Part shown: positions 2 through 56,201 of the stretch, one piece after another
How the letters are laid out: each line of letters opens with the position of its first letter
Numbering within the stretch: position 1 is the first letter of the stretch
Origin: an uncultured Ruminococcus sp.
GTDB taxonomy: Bacteria; Bacillota; Clostridia; Oscillospirales; Ruminococcaceae
Assembly (NCBI GenBank): GCA_900550695.1
Contig: URTF01000001.1
Location: 7,896 to 71,895 of the forward strand
Direction of reading: 5' to 3'
Length of the DNA stretch: 64,000 nt
Notes under the pieces: generated by a model
Told to the model about the DNA's origin: nothing
The model's database searches: none
The model's input: only the letters and a program-made list of their open reading frames with translations
Translations under genes and position numbers: made by a program

Positions 2-1204
2 GAAACTCTCAACAGCATGACACCTATCTGGCGCAAGAACAAGAACGAACTCACCGATGAGGACTACAACAAGTTCTACAAGGAAAAATACTACGATTAC
101 AGCGATCCGCTCTGCCATATCCACGTCAAGACAGAGGGTACTGCGACCTATGATGCGCTCCTTTACGTTCCTGCAAATACCCCTATGGATTTCTACACGA
201 AGAACTTCAAAAAGGGACTTCAGCTCTATTCGAGCGGTGTTCTCATCATGGACAAGTGCGAGGACCTTATCCCCGACCATTTCTGCTTCGTTAGAGGTCT
301 TGTCGATTCGCAGGATCTTTCGCTCAACATCTCCCGTGAAATGCTCCAGCACGACAGACAGCTCAAACTTATCGCAAAGTCGCTTGAAAAGACAATCAAG
401 AACGAATTGAAGAAGATGCTTACCAACGAGCGTGAGAAGTATGAACAGCTCTGGAAGAACTTCGGTATGCAGATAAAGTTCGGCGTTTACAACGGTTACG
501 GCGCAAACAAAGACCTGCTCAAAGACCTCCTTATGTTCTATTCTTCAAACGAGAAAAAGCTTGTAACGCTTGATGAATACACTCAGAGAATGAAGGAAGA
601 CCAGAAGTATATCTACTATGCCGCAGGCGAAACTGTAGACAAGGTAGATGCTCTCCCTCAGACCGAGGTTGTTAAGGACAAGGGTTACGAAATTCTTTAT
701 CTTACAGAAAGCGTTGACGAGTTCGCACTCAAGGTTCTTGAACAGTATAACGACAAGCCGTTCAAGTCTGTTTCGGACGCAGACCTCGACCTTGATACTC
801 CCGAGGAAAAGGAAGAATTCAAGAAGCTTTCCGAAGAGAGCAAGGATATGCTTGACGAGATAGCAAAGGCTCTCGACGGCAAGGTAAACTCCGCTAAGCT
901 TTCCGAAAGACTTAAATCCCACCCTGTCTGCATCACGAACGAGGGTGAAATTTCGCTCGAAATGGAAAAGACCTTTGCCGCAATGCCGACCGACCAGAAC
1001 GTAAAGGCTCAGAAGGTTCTCGAGATCAACCCTAACCACCCGATCTTCGGCGTTCTCAAAGACCTCTACTCAAACAACAAGGAAAAGCTTGCCGACTACA
1101 GCAAGATACTCTACACCGAAGCACTTCTTATCGAGGGTATGCCGATAGAAGACCCGCTCGCATTCTCGAACCTTGTTTGCTCGCTTATGGTGGAGAAAAA
1201 ATAA
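2..1204 (+). CDS. htpG: Molecular chaperone HtpG (Hsp90), C-terminal ~400 aa; 5' end lies outside the window
   Basis: The frame is open from the window edge. The translation (IWRKNKNELTDEDYNKFYKE, LLYVP, DLSLNISREMLQ) fits the middle and C-terminal domains of bacterial Hsp90. Confidence 0.9.
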   Translation, partial: ETLNSMTPIWRKNKNELTDEDYNKFYKEKYYDYSDPLCHIHVKTEGTATYDALLYVPANTPMDFYTKNFKKGLQLYSSGVLIMDKCEDLIPDHFCFVRGLVDSQDLSLNISREMLQHDRQLKLIAKSLEKTIKNELKKMLTNEREKYEQLWKNFGMQIKFGVYNGYGANKDLLKDLLMFYSSNEKKLVTLDEYTQRMKEDQKYIYYAAGETVDKVDALPQTEVVKDKGYEILYLTESVDEFALKVLEQYNDKPFKSVSDADLDLDTPEEKEEFKKLSEESKDMLDEIAKALDGKVNSAKLSERLKSHPVCITNEGEISLEMEKTFAAMPTDQNVKAQKVLEINPNHPIFGVLKDLYSNNKEKLADYSKILYTEALLIEGMPIEDPLAFSNLVCSLMVEKK

Positions 1205-1221
1205 ATGCGTAATGCGTAATT
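1202..1221 (+). repeat. TAATGCG-type heptamer array starting at the htpG stop codon (TAAATGCGTAATGCGTAATT)
   Basis: Read directly. Same motif and same sense orientation as at five other gene ends in this window. Confidence 0.7.
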
Positions 1222-3807: not shown

Positions 3808-5721
3808 ATGAAAAAAGAAACTGACTTTCAGCCGTACATTCCATCTTCAAAAGCGACAGCGGAATTTACGGCTTCTTCCATTATTACGGGCATCATAACC
3901 GCCATTGTTTTCAGCGCATCGAACGCCTATCTCGGACTGCGTGTGGGAATGACGGTTTCCGCATCGATACCTGCGGCGGTCATTGCGATGAGCGTTATGA
4001 AAATGCTTTCGGGGAAAAATTCCGTACTCGAAAGCAACATCGTTCAGACTATAGGCTCGGCGGGCGAATCGATAGCTTCGGGTTCGATCTTCACGCTGCC
4101 TGCGCTTTTTTTATGGGCGGCGCAGGGGACGGGTGAACGTCCGTCAATACTTGAAATTACGATAATTGCTGTGATAGGCGGTCTGCTCGGCGTGTTTTTT
4201 ATGATACCTCTGCGAAATGCGCTCATCGTCCGTGAGCATGGGACGCTGCCTTATCCCGAGGGTACAGCCTGTGCGCAGGTTCTTCTTGCAGGAGAAAAAG
4301 GTGGAACGGGGGCTTCGGCAGTGTTCGGCGGAATGGGCGCAGGTGCGTTCTTCAAGCTGCTCATTGACGGACTGAAAGCCGTCCCCGAGGAGCTTTCGCT
4401 TCGTCTGAAAAGCTTCGGCGGAGAGATAGGAACGCAGCTTTATCCTGCTGTTATGAGCGTTGGGTATATATGCGGCTTTCGCATTTCTTCCTATATGCTC
4501 GCAGGAGGGATTTTCAGCTGGCTGGTGCTTATCCCCGTTATCGTGAATTTCGGGGGAGCAACGATAATGTACCCGTCCGAAACCGCATCGGTAGCGGAGC
4601 TTTATGCTGAGGGCGGTGCATCTGCGATATGGCAGAATTATATCCGCTACATCGGCGCAGGCGCACTTGCCGCAGGGGGACTTATCAGTCTTATACGCTC
4701 GCTGCCGCTTATTTTCGGGACGTTCCGTGCTGCGCTTTCGGGCGTTGGACGGAACGGAAAAAGCACAAAGCGAACCGAACGTGAACTGGATCTTCGCTTC
4801 GTTATTGCGGCGGTGGCAGTCCTTACGCTTGCGCTGTGGCTTATCCCCGTTATCCCCGTGACGTTTGTCGGTGCGCTGATAACGGTGGTGTTCGGCTTCT
4901 TTTTTGCGGCTGTTTCATCACGAATGGTCGGACTTGTCGGCAGTAGCAACAACCCAGTTTCGGGAATGACGATAGCAACGCTGCTTGCGGCTTCGATGCT
5001 GCTCAAAGCAATGGGAATGGGCGGCGCAGAGGGAATGACCGCCGCTATTGCGATAGGCTCGGTGATAAGCATTATAGCATCGGTCGCAGGTGACACCTCA
5101 CAGGACTTGAAAACGGGTTATATCCTCGGCGCAACTCCGAAAAAGCAGCAGATAGGCGAGATCATCGGCACAACTGCCGCTTCACTCGTCATAGGCGGAA
5201 CTCTCTATCTGCTCGATGCGGCGTGGGGATTCGGTTCTCCCGAGCTTGCCGCACCGCAGGCAACACTAATGAAGATGATAACCGAGGGCGTTATGAGCGC
5301 ACAGCTCCCGTGGAACTTGGTTTTCATCGGTGCATTTGCGGCTGTTTTCGCAGAGATAATAGGTATCCCCGTCCTGCCTTTTGCGATAGGCTCGTATCTG
5401 CCCGTTCAGCTTTCCGCCTGCATCTTCATCGGCGGAGTTATACGTTACTTTGCGGAGCGTGTCAGGGCTGATGATGAAACAAAGGAAAAAGCGATAAACA
5501 AGGGCGTTCTCTTCTCCTCGGGAATGATCGCAGGAGAGGGACTTGTCGGGATATTGCTCGCAGTTGCGGCTGTTTTCGGTGTGAACGGATATCTTGACAT
5601 CTCCGAATACACGGAAAAATATTCGTCCGTTCCGATAGTTCTCGGCTTGCTCGTGCTGGCTTCGATAATACTTCTGCTTGTGAAGTTTTCACGCCCGTCA
5701 AAGGAAGTGAGGTCGGAATGA
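3808..5721 (+). CDS. OPT-family oligopeptide transporter
   Basis: 637-aa polytopic protein. Length and sequence character match bacterial OPT transporters. SD GGAGG lies upstream of the ATG. Confidence 0.8.
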   Translation: MKKETDFQPYIPSSKATAEFTASSIITGIITAIVFSASNAYLGLRVGMTVSASIPAAVIAMSVMKMLSGKNSVLESNIVQTIGSAGESIASGSIFTLPALFLWAAQGTGERPSILEITIIAVIGGLLGVFFMIPLRNALIVREHGTLPYPEGTACAQVLLAGEKGGTGASAVFGGMGAGAFFKLLIDGLKAVPEELSLRLKSFGGEIGTQLYPAVMSVGYICGFRISSYMLAGGIFSWLVLIPVIVNFGGATIMYPSETASVAELYAEGGASAIWQNYIRYIGAGALAAGGLISLIRSLPLIFGTFRAALSGVGRNGKSTKRTERELDLRFVIAAVAVLTLALWLIPVIPVTFVGALITVVFGFFFAAVSSRMVGLVGSSNNPVSGMTIATLLAASMLLKAMGMGGAEGMTAAIAIGSVISIIASVAGDTSQDLKTGYILGATPKKQQIGEIIGTTAASLVIGGTLYLLDAAWGFGSPELAAPQATLMKMITEGVMSAQLPWNLVFIGAFAAVFAEIIGIPVLPFAIGSYLPVQLSACIFIGGVIRYFAERVRADDETKEKAINKGVLFSSGMIAGEGLVGILLAVAAVFGVNGYLDISEYTEKYSSVPIVLGLLVLASIILLLVKFSRPSKEVRSE

Positions 5722-6050
5722 AGCGGATAGACGAAAGCGTTGTTCCTCTTCGCTCGGAAAGCATAAACTGGTCGGCGGACGGGAACGGACTTGTGACCAT
5801 TACAATGGAGAACAGCGGCTTTTTCAACAAGGCTTTGCAGCTGCTTATGAAAAAACCGAAGCGTTCCTTTATCCGCCTTGACGAAAAGGGCAGCTTTTTC
5901 TGGCTCAAAGCAGACGGTTCTCACACCCTGGAAGAAATAGCGGTGGGTTCGGCTGAAAGATTCGGAGAAACGCCCGACATCAGCCTTACGGCAGCAGAAA
6001 AATTTCTTGAAATTCTCTGCGGCTGCGGATTTTATTCTTATAAAAAATAA
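5718..6050 (+). CDS. PqqD-family (RRE-like) small protein, translationally coupled to the OPT gene
   Basis: ATGA start/stop overlap with the OPT gene. The segment LDEKGSFFWLKADGSHTLEEIA....AEKFLEIL matches the PqqD-fold signature. Confidence 0.6.
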   Translation: MKRIDESVVPLRSESINWSADGNGLVTITMENSGFFNKALQLLMKKPKRSFIRLDEKGSFFWLKADGSHTLEEIAVGSAERFGETPDISLTAAEKFLEILCGCGFYSYKK

Positions 6051-16102: not shown

Positions 16103-17521
16103 ATGAAGATTTTATATGCAGCTTCCGAAGCACTCCCTTATGCAGCCTCGGGCGGACTTGCAGATGTTGCAGGTTCACTTCCTGCCGCTTTCGTCAAGGC
16201 AGGTCACGATGCAAGAGTTGTTCTTCCCCTTTATAAAAACGTTAAGCCCGAGCTTCGCAGCCAGCTCGAATTCATCACGAACTTCACCGTTGATGTAGGC
16301 TGGAGAAAGCAGTACTGCGGCGTTTTCAAGGGCAATGTCAACGGCGTTACATACTATCTCCTCGACAACGAATACTACTTCGGCAGAGATGGACTTTACG
16401 GCTTCTATGATGACTGCGAGCGTTTCGTATTCCTCTCCAGAGCAATTATGGAAATGCTCAAATATATCGGCTGGAAGCCCGATGTTATCAACTGCAATGA
16501 CTGGCAGACAGCTCTCGTTCCCGTTTATTACAACATTTTCTATAAGTATCAGTACGGCTTTGACAATATCAAGACCGTGTTCACTATCCACAATATCCAG
16601 TATCAGGGCAAGTACGGCATGGAAGTTATCAACGAAGTGCTTGGTATCCCGATGTATCATACAAAGCTGCTCGAATATGACGGCTGCGTAAACCTTATGA
16701 AAGCCGCATTTGAAACAGCGGACAAGATCACTACCGTTTCACCGAGCTATGCTTGGGAAATTCTTGACCCGTGGTATTCTCATGGACTTGACAGAGCGCT
16801 CGCAGACAAGCAGTATAAGCTCTGCGGCTTCCTCAACGGCATCGATACAGCTCTCTACAACCCGGAGACCGATCCGCTTATCCCGAAGAATTTCAGCGTT
16901 AAAAACACCAAGGGCAAGGAAGAATGTAAGAAAGCGCTCCTTTCCGAGCTTAATCTTCAGGACGGCGACGAGCCTGTTATCGGTATCGTTACACGTTTCG
17001 TTTCCCATAAGGGCATCGACCTTATCAAGTATGTATTCGAGGATATGCTGAACCTCGGCTACAAGTTCGCTATCGTTGGTTCGGGCGAAAAGATCTATGA
17101 AGATTTCTTCAAGGAAATGGCTTGGAGACACCCCGATAAGGTAAGCGCAACTATCGGCTTTATCCCTGCACTCGCAAGAAGAGTTTATGCAGGCGTTGAT
17201 ATGTTCCTTATGCCATCACAGAGCGAACCCTGCGGACTTGCTCAGATGATCTCTCTCCGCTACGGTACTATCCCGATAGTCCGTGAAACTGGCGGTCTGC
17301 GTGACAGCATCAAGGACGCAGGCGATGAGGACGGCAACGGCTTTACATTCAAGACCTACAACGCACACGATATGCTCGATGCAACAAGACGTGCAAGAGA
17401 AGCATACAACGATAAGAAGCGTTGGAAGTACATTATGCACACTGCAATGACTACCGACTGCAGCTGGGATACCTCGGCTGAACTCTACCTCGGACTCTAC
17501 CGTGAGCTTGTCGGAGAGTAA
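16103..17521 (+). CDS. glgA: Glycogen synthase GlgA
   Basis: N-terminus MKILYAASEALPYAASGGLADV is the canonical GlgA start. The upstream extension in the ORF track has no RBS. Confidence 0.92.
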   Translation: MKILYAASEALPYAASGGLADVAGSLPAAFVKAGHDARVVLPLYKNVKPELRSQLEFITNFTVDVGWRKQYCGVFKGNVNGVTYYLLDNEYYFGRDGLYGFYDDCERFVFLSRAIMEMLKYIGWKPDVINCNDWQTALVPVYYNIFYKYQYGFDNIKTVFTIHNIQYQGKYGMEVINEVLGIPMYHTKLLEYDGCVNLMKAAFETADKITTVSPSYAWEILDPWYSHGLDRALADKQYKLCGFLNGIDTALYNPETDPLIPKNFSVKNTKGKEECKKALLSELNLQDGDEPVIGIVTRFVSHKGIDLIKYVFEDMLNLGYKFAIVGSGEKIYEDFFKEMAWRHPDKVSATIGFIPALARRVYAGVDMFLMPSQSEPCGLAQMISLRYGTIPIVRETGGLRDSIKDAGDEDGNGFTFKTYNAHDMLDATRRAREAYNDKKRWKYIMHTAMTTDCSWDTSAELYLGLYRELVGE

Positions 17522-17524
17522 TTT

Positions 17525-17543
17525 TAATGCATAATGCGTAATT
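17525..17543 (+). repeat. Heptamer motif TAATGCATAATGCGTAATT, 4 nt after the glgA stop
   Basis: Read directly. Sense orientation relative to glgA. Confidence 0.65.
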
Positions 17544-17553
17544 GAAATATTGA

Positions 17554-17600
17554 TAAAAAAACAGCGTATATCACGAGATTATGTGATATACGCTGTTTTA
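17554..17600. terminator. Bidirectional intrinsic terminator (glgA / convergent secreted-protein gene)
   Basis: 14-bp stem acagcgtatatcac/gtgatatacgctgt with an A-run before and a T-run after. Confidence 0.75.
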
Positions 17601-22589: not shown

Positions 22590-22949
22590 AAACGAGTGGA
22601 TATGGAATACGTCACGACAGAAATTTTTGGGTTATATTCATATCCGGTTGCCGTTCATTTTACGTTGAAACGCAAATGCACTCACTTCGTTCGTGTATTT
22701 GTGCTTCAAGGATAGTTATTCTGTAGATAAAGAATAGGCGCAATTCACATTTTTTAGGTTTACGAAACGGATTTCTCACATTCCGTTTTACCTTTTTGTG
22801 TGAATTGCGCCTTTTTATTTGTTACTGATTACGTTATTGCAACAACGCCTTAGCTGTTAGTTTAGGGAATTTCGCTCTCTGCGGAGAGCGACAAGGGACG
22901 CTGTCCCCTTGACCCCTGCAAGCCTTTAAAAAGGCTTGACCTAAACTTT
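22590..22949 (+). repeat. ~360-nt multi-hairpin repeat R, copy 1 (candidate structured ncRNA or 3'-UTR element)
   Basis: Homologous over its whole length to the reverse complement of 32450-32814. Contains a 13-bp-stem hairpin plus T-run at 22737-22816. Confidence 0.6.
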
Positions 22950-22988
22950 AGTTGGCTTCGCTTTGCCGAACAAATGTCAGCTATGCAA

Positions 22989-23021
22989 AATTACGCATTA
23001 CGAATTACGAATTACGCATTA
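22989..23021 (-). repeat. Heptamer array TAATGCGTAATTCGTAATTCGTAATGCGTAATT beginning with the helicase TAA stop codon
   Basis: Read directly on the minus strand. The stop codon is the first TAA of the array. Confidence 0.75.
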
Positions 23022-24755
23022 ATTATATTGTTTTCTTTTCTTATTCTGCGAGCCGTCAAATTTTCTTGCTCTGCCTGTATTTTTTCTGCGGAGGCTGCGG
23101 TAGTCCTTTTCGCCGCCCGAACGTCTGCGGTCGGAGCTGCCGTTTTGTCTGCCCTCGCTCTGCTTGCCCTCATAGCGCTTGATCTTTATCTTCTGACCGT
23201 TTATCTTCGTTCCCGTCATGGAATCGATGATATGGTCGAGGTCGGCTTCGGGGACTTCCACTGTTGTATAGCGGTCGTAGATATCGATCTTGCCGAAGTT
23301 TTTGCCTGCCATTCCCGTTGCGTCAACGAGTGCGCCGAGGATAAAGTTCGGTGCGATGCGGTTCTGTCTGCCGAGTGAGATCTCGATCTTGCAGGAGCTG
23401 CCCTTTGATCTGCCCTTTTCGTCACGTGGACGGAACACAGGCTTGATGAACTCGGGGACAGTGCGTGTTTCCTTGGAAATTCTCATTCCGAGGAGAGTTG
23501 CGGCGATCTGCTCCGCCGTAAAGCCACGCTCTGTAAGGCGTTCGAGAAGCTCTGCGCCGTTCGGATATTTCTCCGTTGTGGTATAGTCGCAGACTTTATC
23601 GAGAACCCGCTGTGTTTTCTTTTCGATAACGTCATCTCTTGTTGGGAGTTCGCAGCGGATAATATCAGCCTTTGTGAATCGTGCGATATCCTTAAGCTCG
23701 TAGACCTGCTTTCTGCCGCTCACTATCGTATAAGCCGAACCCGAACGACCTGCTCTGCCTGTTCGGCCGATACGGTGGATATAGTATTCATTGTCCTGCG
23801 GAATATCATAGTTGAAAACTGCATCGACATCGTCAACGTCGATGCCTCTTGCGGCAACGTCGGTCGCAATGAGGATATTTATTCTGCCGCTCTTGAAAGC
23901 GTTAAGCACCTGAGTTCTGCTCTGCTGCTTCATATCGCCGTGAAGACCTGCCGCTTTGAAACCCTTTGCAACGAGGTTTTCGGTAAGCTCATCTACCATT
24001 GCTTTTGTGTTGCAGAAAATCATCGAAAGCTTAGGCTCAAATGCGATAAGGAGCATCTGGAGCGCATCTGTCTTTCTTCCCATAGGAACTTCGTAATAGA
24101 ACTGCGCAACGCTCTCAACTGTGCGGCTTTTCTGCTCAACGCCGACAACGATCGGGTCACGCTGATATTCGCCCGTGATAGCCATTATCTGCGGCGGCAT
24201 TGTTGCCGAGAAAAGCACGGTCTGACGTTCTTCGGGGATATACTGCAAAATTTCTTCGATATCCTCACGGAAACCCATATTGAGCATCTCGTCAGCCTCG
24301 TCAAGAATCACCGAGCGGAGTTCTTCAAGGTGAAGCGTATGACGGCGGATATGATCCATTACACGTCCGGGAGTTCCGACAACGATATTTGCGCCCTTTT
24401 TGAGCTGAACTATCTGGCGTTCGATGTCAGCACCGCCGTAGATAGCGCAGGACTTTACATACGGAAGATATTTAGAGAATTTTTCGATTTCCTGCGAAGC
24501 CTGCATCGCAAGCTCTCTTGTCGGACAGAGTATGAGCGTTTGCACACGGCGATAGCCCTCAGGGTCTATCATTGCAACTGCGGGAAGTCCGAAAGCGGCT
24601 GTCTTTCCCGTACCCGTCTGCGAACGTCCCACAACGTCCTTTCCTTCGAGAAGAAGCGGAATGGCCTTAGCCTGAATTTCCGTAGCCTCCTCATATCCCA
24701 TTTCTTCGACCGCACGGACGATCTCCTGCGGCAATCCGAGTTCACTAAAAAGCAT
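23019..24755 (-). CDS. DEAD-box ATP-dependent RNA helicase with DbpA-type C-terminal RNA-binding domain and R/G/K-rich tail
   Basis: Q motif, AQTGTGKT-like GRSQTGTGKT, DEADEM, SAT and HRIGRTGRAG are present. The C-terminal IEISLGRQNRIAPNFILGAL fits a DbpA RBD. Start at MLFSELGL (ATG 24755). Confidence 0.9.
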   Translation of the reverse strand: MLFSELGLPQEIVRAVEEMGYEEATEIQAKAIPLLLEGKDVVGRSQTGTGKTAAFGLPAVAMIDPEGYRRVQTLILCPTRELAMQASQEIEKFSKYLPYVKSCAIYGGADIERQIVQLKKGANIVVGTPGRVMDHIRRHTLHLEELRSVILDEADEMLNMGFREDIEEILQYIPEERQTVLFSATMPPQIMAITGEYQRDPIVVGVEQKSRTVESVAQFYYEVPMGRKTDALQMLLIAFEPKLSMIFCNTKAMVDELTENLVAKGFKAAGLHGDMKQQSRTQVLNAFKSGRINILIATDVAARGIDVDDVDAVFNYDIPQDNEYYIHRIGRTGRAGRSGSAYTIVSGRKQVYELKDIARFTKADIIRCELPTRDDVIEKKTQRVLDKVCDYTTTEKYPNGAELLERLTERGFTAEQIAATLLGMRISKETRTVPEFIKPVFRPRDEKGRSKGSSCKIEISLGRQNRIAPNFILGALVDATGMAGKNFGKIDIYDRYTTVEVPEADLDHIIDSMTGTKINGQKIKIKRYEGKQSEGRQNGSSDRRRSGGEKDYRSLRRKNTGRARKFDGSQNKKRKQYN

Positions 24756-24947
24756 AATTTTTCCTTTCCATAACATGGCATTGGACAAAACACGCTCTCT
24801 GACAAAACTCTCCTGCCCTACGCCGACACATAATTATAATTTTTACAAAACAGAAATTAATTATAACACATTGCATAGCAAATTGTCAACTGCTTTTTTC
24901 TGTTATTTTTTTAATAAAAAAGCTTGTTCACGTTTAATGTAAACAAT

Positions 24948-43512: not shown

Positions 43513-44391
43513 ATGAGCAAAGTGAAAATTATGACCGACTCCGCAAGCGACATTTCGCTTGAGCAGGCAGAAAAATATGATATTGCCCTCGTTAATTTCT
43601 GGATAATCGTAGGTGAACGCAGCCTTCGTGAACACGTTGAATATTCGACCAAGGAATTCTATAAGCTTATGGACGAAGTGGACGAAATGCCCCACACCTC
43701 GCAGATACGCGTTGAAGACTATATCGGCGAGTATGAGAAGCAGTATAACGACGGCGTTACCGACCTCATCAATGTCGTTATCGCTTCTATCGGCTCGAAT
43801 TCGTTCAACAATGCCAATGCCGCAAAGGAAAAGTTCTACGAGCTTCACCCCGAAGCAAAGGATAAAATGAACATCACCGTTATGGACAGCAAGGGTTACA
43901 CGGGCGTTTACGGACTTCCCGTTATGCAGGCGGCAAAGAAGATACAGAAGGGTGCGTCCGCCGATGAGATCATCGCATACCTCACCGACTGGTTCGACAG
44001 CGGCATAATCATCTGCACGGCATATACCCTTAAATATGCGAAGAAATCGGGACGTGTTGGCTGTGCGACCGCATTCGTAGGCGAAATGCTCGGACTGAAG
44101 CCTATCATCACATTCACGGACGCAGTTTCTGAGACCGTTGCAAAGATAAGAGGAGAAAAAGCCGTTCTCCCGAAAATGGTAGAGTATGCGACCGAGCATA
44201 TGATCCCGGGAACAGCTTATGCTATCCTCGACGGCAGCCGCCCCGAGCTTACGGAAGAATTAACAAAGCTTATGAAAAAAGCTGTCGGCTATGACCCCGA
44301 GGAGATATGCGAAGTCGGAGCGACTATCTCCTGCCATCTCGGACACGAAGTATCGGGAATCATTGTTAAATGCCCGAACAGAAAGACGTAA
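43513..44391 (+). CDS. DegV family fatty-acid-binding protein
   Basis: KIMTDSASDIS start and typical DegV length and sequence. Confidence 0.88.
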   Translation: MSKVKIMTDSASDISLEQAEKYDIALVNFWIIVGERSLREHVEYSTKEFYKLMDEVDEMPHTSQIRVEDYIGEYEKQYNDGVTDLINVVIASIGSNSFNNANAAKEKFYELHPEAKDKMNITVMDSKGYTGVYGLPVMQAAKKIQKGASADEIIAYLTDWFDSGIIICTAYTLKYAKKSGRVGCATAFVGEMLGLKPIITFTDAVSETVAKIRGEKAVLPKMVEYATEHMIPGTAYAILDGSRPELTEELTKLMKKAVGYDPEEICEVGATISCHLGHEVSGIIVKCPNRKT

Positions 44392-44396
44392 GAAAA

Positions 44397-44427
44397 ATTC
44401 GGAATTCGGAATGAGGAATTCGGAATT
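44397..44427 (+). repeat. AATTCGG-type short tandem repeat just after the degV stop
   Basis: aattcggaattcggaatgaggaattcggaatt. Related in form to the TAAT(G/T)CG arrays. Confidence 0.6.
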
Positions 44428-44585
44428 ATTTATATTCTGCATATTTGTCACGAAAACCTTAATTCCGTAGGGGCGGATTCCATATCCGCCAGTTGCAAGC
44501 CCTTTATTTTAGGCAAAGTTTCTGTATGGGACGTGTTTCCCGTCCCAATTTGCGAAACGATTTTCGGCAGCAATTATTCACAAAG

Positions 44586-44640
44586 AAAACACCCCTGTTT
44601 TCATCGGATAAAACCGTTGAAAACAGGGGTGTTCGTTTAT
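44586..44640. terminator. Strong intrinsic terminator hairpin in convergent intergenic region
   Basis: 15-bp stem aacacccctgttttc/gaaaacaggggtgtt. Confidence 0.65.
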
Positions 44641-44707
44641 TGTGAAACACATTGCGGCGTGGTACGGGAAATCTGTCCCTACGATCTGCGGCAATTTACG
44701 GAGCAAA

Positions 44708-44724
44708 CTAATTACGAATTATCA
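44708..44724 (-). repeat. TGATAATTCGTAATTAG motif at the stop codon of the FapA-like gene
   Basis: Read directly on the minus strand. Confidence 0.55.
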
Positions 44725-47012: not shown

Positions 47013-48062
47013 TTATTCAAAATCTGCGTTCTGATGCTTGCCGTATTCGGCGGCATAATCAACGAAGCTTATGTTCATATCGACATAACCGTCAATGCCG
47101 TCCACACTGCCGTCGCTTGCATACTGCCACATCTGAAGCTCGTACGGATAGCTCGGCGGATTATGACCGTCCTTGTATTCAACGTACCAGAAATCATAAG
47201 CACTCAGGGTCTGCATATCGTATTTGGTCAGTGCCATTTTCAGATTGCTGTAAAGCATCGCCGTATAACCTCGGTCGGTTATCTCTTGGCAGAAAGCCGC
47301 CGCACATTTGTTGAGCGTTTCTGTAGTCGTTCCGAGTGTTCTCGCCTCACTGTCATCGGGCAGCTCCCAATCGAAAACAACGGGATATTTTATCTCGCTG
47401 TCCTTTATGAGCTCACAGACATAGACCGCCTCTTCACGGGCCTCGGCTTCGCTTACCGCCTGCGAATAGAAGTACACGCCGACATCAATGCCTGCCGCCT
47501 GCGCACCGCTGATATAGCTTTCGGAAAGCTCATCACGATGCATAATGCCCTTTTCATAGCCTCGGTAGCCAATGCGTATCATCGCAAAATCGATACCGTC
47601 AGCTGCGACCCTTTCCCAGTCGATGTCGCCCTGATGATAGGAAACGTCAATTCCCGTCTTTGAAACAGCCTCGCCGTTTTCATAATATGTATAGCGGTTG
47701 TCCTCGCCGAGTTCAAGGTTTTCCCAGTCAAGAGTATTGAGCGGGACACCATCAAGCGGCTCTGCGGAAAAATCGCCGTAAATATCATCGTGATAAAGCA
47801 TACTGCCATCGGGATCGGGATATTCGTCAACATTCGTATTCATTGCCGCTATGTAGCTTTCGCTGTCTGCAAGCCGCTGCTCAAGCTCATTGATGTTCTT
47901 CCGGAGCTTTGCGACCTTCATGAAAAGCACAGCAATAAGAACAGCAAAGGCGGCAAACAACACAGCAGCAATAAGCCGGACGTTCAGAGGTCTGTTCTTT
48001 CTGACGGCCGTTTCCGCCGGGTTTTCAGGCGGTCGGCTGTCTTGGATATTGCTGTCTATCAT
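47013..48062 (-). CDS. Membrane-anchored GH25 muramidase (lysozyme)
   Basis: N-terminal TM. The GH25 core GIDVSYHQGDIDWERVAADGIDFAMIRIGYRG is present. Confidence 0.8.
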   Translation of the reverse strand: MIDSNIQDSRPPENPAETAVRKNRPLNVRLIAAVLFAAFAVLIAVLFMKVAKLRKNINELEQRLADSESYIAAMNTNVDEYPDPDGSMLYHDDIYGDFSAEPLDGVPLNTLDWENLELGEDNRYTYYENGEAVSKTGIDVSYHQGDIDWERVAADGIDFAMIRIGYRGYEKGIMHRDELSESYISGAQAAGIDVGVYFYSQAVSEAEAREEAVYVCELIKDSEIKYPVVFDWELPDDSEARTLGTTTETLNKCAAAFCQEITDRGYTAMLYSNLKMALTKYDMQTLSAYDFWYVEYKDGHNPPSYPYELQMWQYASDGSVDGIDGYVDMNISFVDYAAEYGKHQNADFE

Positions 48063-48199
48063 TTTTTACTTCCTTTTATAAAAAATCATAATTATCTAAT
48101 ATATAAGTATAACACTTTTTATGCTATGTTGCAACAACTAATAACAAATTTTATATAAAATTGACTAATTTTCGCCTTTTTTGATGTTATAATGACAAT

Positions 48200-48316
48200 T
48201 TTTTAATGCGTAATGCGTAATGCGTAATGCGTAATTAATGCAATGCAGAGCATTGCATACAAATTAAGAATTGTAAAAAAATGCGTTCACAATTTTTTTC
48301 GTGAACGCATTTTTTA
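48200..48316 (+). ncRNA. Candidate ~115-nt sRNA made of four TAATGCG units, a 9-bp hairpin and an intrinsic terminator
   Basis: Extended -10 promoter TGtTATAAT at 48185-48193. Array at 48204-48235, hairpin at 48238-48258, and terminator stem atgcgttcac/gtgaacgcat (48281-48310) plus T-run. No ORF. Confidence 0.35.
48204..48235 (+). repeat. (TAATGCG)x4 + TAAT heptamer array
   Basis: Perfect 4-unit tandem repeat. It is the only array in the window not preceded by a same-strand gene. Confidence 0.8.
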
Positions 48317-48338
48317 ATATTCTAACGAAACAGCGAAG

Positions 48339-48376
48339 CTAATTACGCATTACGCATTACGAATTACGCATTATCA
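48339..48376 (-). repeat. Heptamer array TGATAATGCGTAATTCGTAATGCGTAATGCGTAATTAG starting at the pncB stop
   Basis: Read directly on the minus strand. It forms an inverted repeat with 48204-48235. Confidence 0.75.
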
Positions 48377-56043: not shown

Positions 56044-56107
56044 TGTGATTATCTCATTTGCGGTTTATTTGTGATTATTATATCCGTGCTGAGATTTTTT
56101 ATAAATG

Positions 56108-56183
56108 AAAAAGGCGCAATTCACATAATAGATTGAACGAATCAGGTTTCGTAAACCTTAAAATGTGAATTGCGCCTTTTTTT
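56108..56183. terminator. Bidirectional terminator that is a third copy of the repeat-R hairpin (stem GGCGCAATTCACA/TGTGAATTGCGCC)
   Basis: 13-bp stem identical to those at 22737-22811 and 32590-32664. About 38-nt loop containing aggtttacgaaac. Flanked by an A-run and a T-run. Confidence 0.7.
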
Positions 56184-56189
56184 GCTAAT

Positions 56190-56201
56190 AATTACGCATT
56201 A
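56190..56201 (-). repeat. TAATGCGTAATT motif whose first TAA is the pyk stop codon
   Basis: Minus strand reads ...ACA ATA AAA TAA TGCGTAATT. Confidence 0.6.

Follow-up and report, generated by a model that had tools for sequence, protein, structure and literature searches.

Tandem heptamer arrays as probable end modules of repeated elements at gene 3' ends in an uncultured Ruminococcus

Tandem arrays of the heptamer TAAT(G/T)CG lie on or next to the stop codons of several genes in a stretch of 64,000 nucleotides (nt) from an uncultured Ruminococcus sp., hereafter the window (C1:7896-71895 of the genome designated G000, an assembly of 2.18 Mb in 127 contigs with a GC content of 45.7% and a completeness of 89.6%). 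A preliminary description of the window, made from its letters alone, had reported the motif at the ends of six genes (htpG, glgA, a DEAD-box helicase gene, a FapA-like gene, pncB and pyk) and a related AATTCGG repeat after degV; all these sites are present, and pyk carries only one unit. The arrays fall into two subfamilies, which we call T-type (AATKCGT) and G-type (AATKCGG).

Heptamer arrays at the gene ends of the window

At the helicase gene (23019-24788), whose best named relative belongs to the metagenome-assembled genome (MAG) of an uncultured Oscillospiraceae (69% identity), followed by relatives from Ruminococcus MAGs, the array is a T-type end module read on the minus strand (TAATGCG TAATTCG TAATTCG TAATGCG TAATT, 22989..23021). 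The gene terminates on the first TAA of this module (23021-23019), as had been noted for both the helicase and pyk. Behind it lies a repeated interior (22590..22988, minus strand) that includes the multi-hairpin module M2 (gcatagct..gcgaagccaa..ggggtcaagggg..) as well as a terminator-like hairpin (ggcgcaattcaca...tgtgaattgcgcc) at about 22735-22816. At pyk, a single unit followed by AATT (TAATGCGTAATT, 56190..56201, minus strand) provides the stop codon (TAA, 56201-56199) and is followed by a terminator of the same ggcgcaattcaca family; this single unit is a remnant or a minimal form, not an array.

The window contains two complete elements bounded by inverted arrays. The element of 170 bp located 3' of pncB (48204-48373) carries a four-unit T-type arm on the minus strand (48342..48373), placed 1 nt (T) past the pncB stop codon (TGA, 48376-48374). 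The inverted partner of this arm is a perfect (TAATGCG)x4.6 array on the plus strand (48204..48235), which is sense to no gene end and faces the promoter side of the gene 47013-48062 (minus strand). It had been overlooked when the motif was said to be always in the sense orientation of the gene. The interior (48236..48341) comprises a 9-bp hairpin (aatgcaatgcagagcattgcat) and a bidirectional intrinsic terminator (aaaaaaatgcgttcac..gtgaacgcatttttt), and it recurs at C40:11793 in G000. An extended -10 box (TGTTATAAT) is found at 48185-48193, just upstream of the plus-strand array at 48204, and is kept in the related genome G013, where the array is of the G-type; it could give rise to a short transcript starting with the array and ending at the central terminator.

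The second complete element (44396-44724) fills the space between the convergent degV and FapA-like genes. Its left arm, on the plus strand, has four G-type units (AATTCGG AATTCGG AATGAGG AATTCGG AATT, 44396..44427); it starts 4 nt after the degV stop codon (44389-44391), where the AATTCGG repeat had been seen, and it is stop-free in all frames. The inverted partner is a short T-type arm of about two units (TAATTCG TAATTAG; 44708..44724, minus strand), directly after the TGA of the FapA-like gene (44724-44722), which is immediately followed by TAATTCGTAATTAG. The interior (44428..44707) contains hairpins starting with GTAG that resemble repetitive extragenic palindromes (REP), at 44467-44490, 44527-44545 and 44661-44682 (minus strand), and amid them a bidirectional terminator (about 44586-44633).

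The arrays of htpG and glgA have two units each and lie on the plus strand. At htpG, the T-type array with its AATT (1204..1221) overlaps the last base of the stop codon (TAA, 1202-1204). At glgA, the stop codon (17519-17521) is followed by TTTT, the array (AATGCAT AATGCGT AATT, 17526..17543) and an intrinsic terminator (17558-17599), and the array is therefore within the 3' untranslated region (UTR). The terminator stems themselves recur as families: the stem ggcgcaattcaca...tgtgaattgcgcc of the helicase interior is found again at about 56090-56180 behind pyk, and a second stem (atgcgttcacg...cgtgaacgcat) occurs both at 48276-48316 (pncB) and at C40:11860-11900 of G000.

Arrays as borders between gene DNA and repeated DNA

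As a single heptamer, the motif shows no excess in the window (22 observed, 27.6 +/- 5 expected), and the signal stems entirely from tandem arrays. These arrays, defined genome-wide by at least two tandem units, number 199 in G000 against 8-14 in shuffled genomes; the statistics relating positions to genes were computed on the arrays of at least three units (n=143). Genes were called with a home-made codon-score picker of open reading frames (ORFs), which is rough and covers 83% of the genome, and the distances to stop codons were cross-checked by direct tracing of open frames. Pairing of arrays was scored within 1.5 kb, and random intergenic positions and orientations served as the null for stop adjacency. 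The built-in control of the first array pattern search was invalid, since the reversed TAATGCG is a rotation of itself; the controls of the searches for G-type arrays and hairpins were clean.

Exactly four units followed by AATT make up 113 of the 199 arrays, which is the modal length (Tandem Repeats Finder gives a period of 7 and about 4.6 copies), and the motif formed by one unit and AATT is found 321 times where about 6 occurrences would be expected. AATGCGT, AATTCGT and AATTCGG, three units related to one another, dominate the period-7 repeats of the genome. Their order is position-specific, namely AATGCGT AATTCGT AATGCGT AATGCGT AATT in the T-type and AATTCGG AATT(C/A)GG AATGCGG AATTCGG AATT in the G-type, and the end module has the general form (T/A)AAT-K-CG-K x4 + AATT, which gives five AAT cores. 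The array is therefore a defined sequence of about 32 nt with a heptad periodicity, and not a free microsatellite.

The DNA on the two sides of the arrays differs sharply in copy number: the 90 nt inside have at least five other genomic copies for 88 of 139 arrays, whereas the 90 nt outside are unique for 126 of 142. The arrays were thereby shown to mark the boundary at which unique gene DNA gives way to repeated DNA. The preliminary description, which had considered the motif on its own, had also stated that membership in a larger mobile repeat would speak against its proposals, and the motif indeed turned out to be the terminal module of a larger repeat. In a typical element, the array adjoins a conserved spacer (AATTATTTTTGCTCCGCAAATTT) some 25 nt long; next come GTAG hairpins, or else a multi-hairpin module, then a bidirectional intrinsic terminator, the mirrored modules and, lastly, the inverted array. 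The hairpin behind AATTATTTTTGCTCCGCAAATTT is GTAGGGGCGGATTCNATATCCGCCC or GTAGGGGACGGG...CCCGTCCC, or its place is taken by the multi-hairpin module (gcatagct..gcgaagccaa...), as behind the helicase array. The hairpin GTAGGGGCGGATTCNATATCCGCCC, i.e. GTAG followed by a GC-rich imperfect palindrome, has 57 copies in G000 and forms inverted doublets 47-48 nt apart in related genomes. The element as a whole extends from the stop codon to the next gene.

Pairing follows the same architecture. An array on the plus strand precedes one on the minus strand in 46 pairs and the reverse order occurs in 6; the paired elements are 163-815 bp long and have inverted arms of 28-35 nt, which are of the same type in 38 pairs and of mixed types in 6 (Fisher p 6e-6). 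Upon folding, the arms close a long stem around the interior hairpins and the strong bidirectional terminator. The elements have no match in Rfam at either gathering or permissive thresholds. Together, these sequence data support the proposal, which we regard as probable, that the arrays are outward-facing end modules of 32 nt belonging to high-copy, genus-restricted, mosaic non-coding repeat elements located at gene 3' ends. The arrays are in the sense orientation at gene ends because the ends face outward, and this orientation is not universal: 30 of the 143 arrays (about 21%), most of them far arms of pairs, point toward a gene start.

MITEs (transposable elements of the miniature inverted-repeat kind) of the IS630 type (TACTAA...TTAGTA) were observed inside heptamer-array elements, as in the interior of C49:7642-7974 of G000, or replacing them, as in G014 at the site orthologous to C14:17986 (L156, G014:C13:42230-42589). 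Their target there is apparently either the TAA/TTA-rich arrays or the stop codon.

Stop codons supplied by the arrays and their change between species

The genome-wide count against stop distance and strand, which the preliminary description had proposed, gave a same-strand stop codon within 12 nt for 88 of the 143 arrays (61.5%, against 2.3% for the null; p ~3e-105). Only nine arrays lie within 60 nt of a gene start, antisense to the gene, and 15 of 32 pairs stand between convergent genes as compared to 1 of 32 between divergent genes. About 7% of the genes carry an array. The suggested link to highly expressed genes is weak, the codon score of these genes being higher (p 6e-6) but confounded by gene length and by the rough gene caller.

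Many genes terminate inside the array itself. Among 94 long ORFs that reach an array, the stop in use is found at offset -1 (n=41), +6 (n=10), +13 (n=5) or +20 (n=2), such that 58 of the 94 abutting genes (about 60%) use a TAA supplied by the array, which gives rise to array-coded C-terminal tails (-NA/-NS, -MRNS/-MRNA and -QCVIRNA). TAA is the stop codon of 79% of the genes with an array and of 62% of the others. The T needed at the terminus to complete the first TAA is found on 66% of the arms touching no gene and on 71% of those touching one; this TAA therefore belongs to the element.

These stops could be taken to indicate a dedicated translational backstop, i.e. that selection has favoured the arrays mainly because they stop, in any frame, ribosomes that read through or shift frame where important genes end. 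The stop-frame asymmetry that had been noted holds for TAATKCG, which has TAA in three frames (within 17 nt) on the forward strand and no stop on the reverse strand, and T-type arrays do work as stops whatever the frame of the incoming ORF; the frequent use of the array TAA, the elevated TAA usage and the invariant TAAT core of the unit agree with it. The asymmetry fails for AATTCGG arrays, which are stop-free in every frame, and yet G-type arrays occupy the same positions: 25 of 50 abut gene ends in G000, as do 9 of 23 sampled arrays (about 40%) in G017, which has G-type arrays only, and two G-type arrays are translated through as ..IRNSECGIRN*. The all-frame stop is thus real and in use, but it cannot explain where arrays are placed. 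Furthermore, the far arms are directed toward promoters, the terminal TAA does not depend on an abutting gene, three units would be enough whereas the length is fixed at four plus AATT, few genes carry an array, and the arrays are always accompanied by repeated interiors. As a main explanation, we consider the backstop quite unlikely.

Comparison across 19 genomes of the genus and 22 genomes of other genera, using a synthetic empty-site query and a gene-end query for the sister species, showed that the arrays are confined to the genus and change rapidly within it. Four-unit T-type arrays occur in 11 of the 19 genomes, G-type arrays in 11 and either type in 13; none was found in the 22 genomes of other genera. 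The type patterns differ between species, with T-type only in G016 and G018, nearly T-type only in G011 (48 versus 3), and G-type only in G003 and G017. The distribution of GTAG hairpins overlaps that of the arrays but is distinct from it, since G015 has 32 hairpins and zero arrays, and G001 has arrays and zero hairpins.

Orthologous gene ends in sister species keep arrays, while the type and the interior are swapped, the coding junction is shifted and the number of units varies from 1 to 5. At the 3' end of pncB, for instance, a T-type element is found in G000 and G007; at the same spot, G013 and G008 have a paired G-type element and G014 a G-type array. G010 has a G-type array together with M2, G016 and G018 have M2 with the array absent, and the site is empty in G011 and G002, which have an ordinary terminator. 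Protein ends change accordingly: ..KSK-NA* in G000 corresponds to ..KAKN* followed by an array in G014 (C40:11793), ..ALES-MRNS* in G000 and G002 to ..ALEILK* in G014 (C2:43342), and ..LII-NA* in G000 to ..LINNSQQ* in G014 (C49:7947), whereas the helicase has three different C-termini in G000, G002 and G014. We thus showed that the last 1-5 codons of genes are remodelled between sister species, with native ends replaced by ends that the array supplies. The interiors diverge much faster than the flanks, which suggests exchange among copies.

The variable number of units at orthologous sites is also what would be expected of plain microsatellites generated by replication slippage, independently of one another, beside TAA(T) stops; heptanucleotide repeats are the commonest long class of simple sequence repeats in prokaryotes according to Mrazek 2007, as cited in PMC4679880. 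Such an origin would predict unrelated flanks, and it is contradicted by the shared flanking modules: a position-specific sequence of 32 nt recurs more than 100 times, and the spacer behind it, about 25 nt long, is the same. It also accounts poorly for arms that are paired and co-typed, for the restriction of the arrays to one genus, and for a sharp mode at four units in place of a decaying length distribution. We regard it as very improbable.

Other heptamers were observed in the same kind of position, i.e. AACTATT in G000 (n=5), AATTGAT/AATTGAG/AATTGAC in G002 (L151, G002:C5:97196-97555, orthologous to C13:6268 of G000), and GGAATGT/GGAAAGT and AATGAAT/AGTGAAT in G017 (L198-L212).

Exact arrays are also found in viral contigs of IMG/VR (T-type in 3, G-type in 22). 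One phage family has a four-unit G-type array embedded in frame in an ORF of 348 amino acids (aa) (..SNSEFGMRNSEL..; L192:2669-3715, contig 3300045988_110642). A second array, 2.6 kb downstream on the same contig (L192), ends a 546-aa ORF (4405-6045), with the stop inside the degenerate first unit; about 15 related phage contigs share this arrangement.

Cargo genes, related repeats and the possible origin of the elements

The elements have gene-bearing relatives, which carry genes coding for PF05635 proteins (23S rRNA intervening-sequence, IVS, proteins). Of the 19 genomes of the genus, nine contain such genes, 11 in total, and all 11 are bracketed by inverted heptamer arrays, which involve seven different heptamers. 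The arms are exactly of the G-type in G014, G013 and G017 and exactly of the T-type in G011, and they match the dominant array type of the genome in G017 (G-type only) and G011 (almost T-type only); other heptamers around these genes are AATAGTT, AATTAAG and AATGAAT. Five of the 11 genes are located at one orthologous operon site, where the heptamer of both arms changed jointly between species (G-type, T-type and AATTAAG). The proteins match Pfam with 100 bits and also match PDB entry 2rld, which has five chains; their identity is 82% between genes flanked by the same heptamer and 78% between those flanked by different ones, a covariation too weak to call. This bracketing ties the arrays to a gene-bearing, hairpin-bounded type of cassette; that the protein acts on the arrays does not follow. 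As G000 is devoid of a PF05635 gene, its elements would be gene-less derivatives. At the operon site mentioned above (C5:43806-44331), a toxin-antitoxin pair of the hicA/hicB-like kind stands in G000 instead of the cassette, and a remnant of one G-type unit marks its left junction; this site looks like a cassette hot spot.

We also considered as a possible mobiliser a Y1 transposase resembling the REP-associated tyrosine transposases (RAYT). No match to Y1_Tnp (PF01797, RAYT/IS200), and no homologue of the RAYT-like gene of the relatives, was found in the G000 assembly, which is 89.6% complete. In the relatives, this 171-aa gene has two inverted GTAGGGGCGGATTCNATATCCGCCC hairpins within its own reading frame, at the same positions in three species (L171:1201-1713, from G007:C95; G018:C1:26466-26975; G015:C100:1178-1666).

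Several observations weigh against the proposal that the arrays are the ends of such repeat elements. First, 79 of the 143 arrays are solo. Second, no direct repeat indicative of a target-site duplication was found at the 46 pairs, which show only a T/C preference at position -1; a model involving a TA duplication fits only about 70% of the T-type ends and fails at the G-type ends. Third, both arms abut the stops of convergent genes in 11 pairs, which a single simple insertion does not explain. Fourth, the frame bias of the array stops (41:10:7, p 1e-8) exceeds what random frames would give, and it suggests that the TAA of the element is aligned with the native stop by targeting or microhomology. 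Fifth, no autonomous element was recognised, since array pairs 0.9-6 kb apart in G000 enclose only ordinary genes (for example AAA ATPase and PnuC), and the ends are shared by the PF05635 cassettes alone. Sixth, the candidate mobilisers do not track the arrays: the RAYT-like gene is present in 7 of 13 array-positive genomes and in 2 of 6 array-negative ones, and the PF05635 gene is found neither in G000 nor in complete, array-rich genomes, among them G018 and G002.

At the AAA ATPase locus (C18:14662-16747 of G000), a gene for a 452-aa DUF4143-like protein lies between two near-identical copies of a T-type element together with the rplQ terminator. The outer flanks of this locus are only 145-350 nt apart in G014 and G008, and the gene was hence gained or lost between the repeat copies.

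Some of the evidence for paired arms would also suit a 3'-UTR RNA element used by the host, either as a platform for an oligomeric RNA-binding protein or, where transcription reads through, as an arm-arm stem of 28-32 bp that is cut by RNase III or blocks exonucleases, as REP stems do. Arrays occur between the stop codon and the terminator, as at glgA and at several solo arrays directly before terminators; the arms fold into long perfect stems around the terminator; their types are coupled; and their joint change of heptamer at the orthologous operon site fits a selection for complementarity. Excision from rRNA at stems of this kind is known for the IVS elements that carry PF05635 genes, and RNA sites spaced by 7 nt have a precedent in the UAG-N4 repeats bound by HutP. 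On the other hand, about 21% of the arrays face promoters, half of the arrays are solo and hence unable to form a stem, the far arm would escape transcription if the central terminator worked efficiently, T-type arrays do not fold by themselves (z -0.5), and both the sequence and the length of the arrays drift rapidly between sister species. A host-used RNA element is accordingly an unlikely explanation in our opinion, though the best placed of the alternatives.

The preliminary description knew of no equivalent of the arrays, and we found no description of such arrays in Ruminococcus-like bacteria in the literature, but a close analogue has been published, i.e. the heptamer repeats GGGAATC of Xanthomonas and GGGGA(C/T)T of Nostoc (Rehm et al. 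2015, PLoS One, PMC4692102). These number about 185 per genome, mostly with four units, form 70-75 convergent inverted pairs, and are 89-93% intergenic, nearest to the upstream ORF (about 28 nt). On the sense strand they are close to stop codons or overlap them; they seldom occur between divergent ORFs, are restricted to a genus and have no linked insertion sequence, and their gene contexts are mostly common to sister species while length and sequence vary (PMC4692102). The arrays described here are similar in these respects, including their mode of four 7-nt units, their convergent pairs, their proximity to stops and the rarity of divergent contexts, and the G-type unit shares with the Xanthomonas unit a GGAAT core (CGGAATT and GGGAATC). 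They differ in being the borders of repeated interiors and terminators and in providing stops that are in use, features which PMC4692102 did not examine, and in belonging to the phylum Bacillota.

They also differ in the sequence from which the four-unit preference was explained. Rehm et al. (PMC4692102) ascribed this preference to the formation of G-quadruplexes, and if the arrays were simple-sequence repeats forming such non-B DNA, four units would correspond to four G-tracts. Their anatomy fits the published class, and a G-type array contains the GG doublet four times and is able to fold upon itself (z -3.2). By contrast, as judged from sequence, T-type units (AATGCGT/AATTCGT) contain no G-tract and G-type units no more than GG, so that the majority of the arrays do not have the G-rich, quadruplex-capable unit of the published class, although their preference for four units and their placement are no different; the heptamers at PF05635 genes (AATAGTT, AATTAAG and AATGAAT) are also G-poor. 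Since T-type arrays lack both G-tracts and self-structure, the G-quadruplex rationale for four units is not general, and we regard the quadruplex as the least probable of all the explanations considered.

Similarly to REP, to bacterial interspersed mosaic elements (BIMEs) and to the REPIN-RAYT systems (REPINs being REP doublets forming hairpins) of proteobacteria, the elements are modular and extragenic, occur in many copies and are situated at gene 3' ends as well as between convergent genes; their interior hairpins consist of GTAG and a GC-rich palindrome, with inverted doublets in the relatives, and a RAYT-like Y1 gene exists in the clade. Unlike those, they lie directly against the stop codon, and their heptamer arrays, which are not palindromic, correspond to nothing in BIMEs; the RAYT-like gene is neither present in G000 nor co-distributed with the arrays. 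With MITEs (Correia/CREE, RUP, ERIC and IS630-derived), they share terminal inverted repeats, a size of 160-800 bp, presence or absence in relatives, and the ability to carry terminators and to alter gene ends; they differ in that no target-site duplication or cognate transposase was found, their ends consist of tandem heptads whose number varies, solo ends occur frequently and the placement against stop codons is extreme. The PF05635 IVS-protein cassettes have inverted arrays, some of them exactly T- or G-type, around all 11 genes of the genus; PF05635 is not a known transposase, and the elements of the window are gene-less. Finally, the TAACTGA direct repeats of Beggiatoaceae, cyanobacteria and Bacteroidetes, which lie mostly just upstream of start codons (MacGregor 2015, PMC4679880), and the cyanobacterial short tandemly repeated repetitive (STRR) heptamers are likewise strand-specific intergenic tandem heptamers of 2-6 copies with stops in the unit and a patchy phylogeny. 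The TAACTGA repeats are direct, not inverted pairs, and were not reported as the ends of larger repeats, whereas the arrays described here abut stop codons.

Returning to the reading of the arrays as element ends, we propose that the elements would be hairpin-bounded selfish cassettes, similar to MITEs and REPINs, which would spread and be homogenised by a trans-acting activity together with recombination, the number of units being altered by slippage of 7 nt. Their persistence at gene 3' ends may be due to self-insulation, as they would bring a stop in every frame (T-type) and their own terminator. With these, an insertion on or just past a stop codon would cost the host almost nothing, and the stop-cassette property would be a tolerated or selected by-product, and not the reason for the existence of the arrays.

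We further put forward, as a long shot, that inverted arrays of four and a half heptads are the ends of a single class of hairpin-bounded cassettes present across phyla, which home to the stop codon or the nucleotides just behind it and replace one another there, and that their five AAT cores dock a small oligomeric protein. The Xanthomonas GGGAATC repeats, the T- and G-type arrays and the many heptamers around PF05635 genes may be members of this class. A candidate for the docking protein is the recurrent cargo, the four-helix-bundle protein resembling 23S-rRNA-IVS and Avd proteins, whose match 2rld has five chains. If this were true, the four-unit rule would be unrelated to G-quadruplexes and a new mechanism of mobility or processing would be at work.

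Our findings extend four-unit heptamer arrays in inverted gene-end pairs to gut Bacillota and to a sequence incapable of forming G-quadruplexes, the T-type, which removes the only published rationale for the preference for four units. They show what the arrays are attached to, i.e. mosaic, terminator-carrying elements, and that the arrays rewrite the last codons and stops of about 5% of the genes, core housekeeping genes included, differently in sister species. Array-coded tails (-NA, -MRNS and -QCVIRNA) are thus to be expected in the annotation of these genomes, and the link to PF05635 offers a concrete protein to test.

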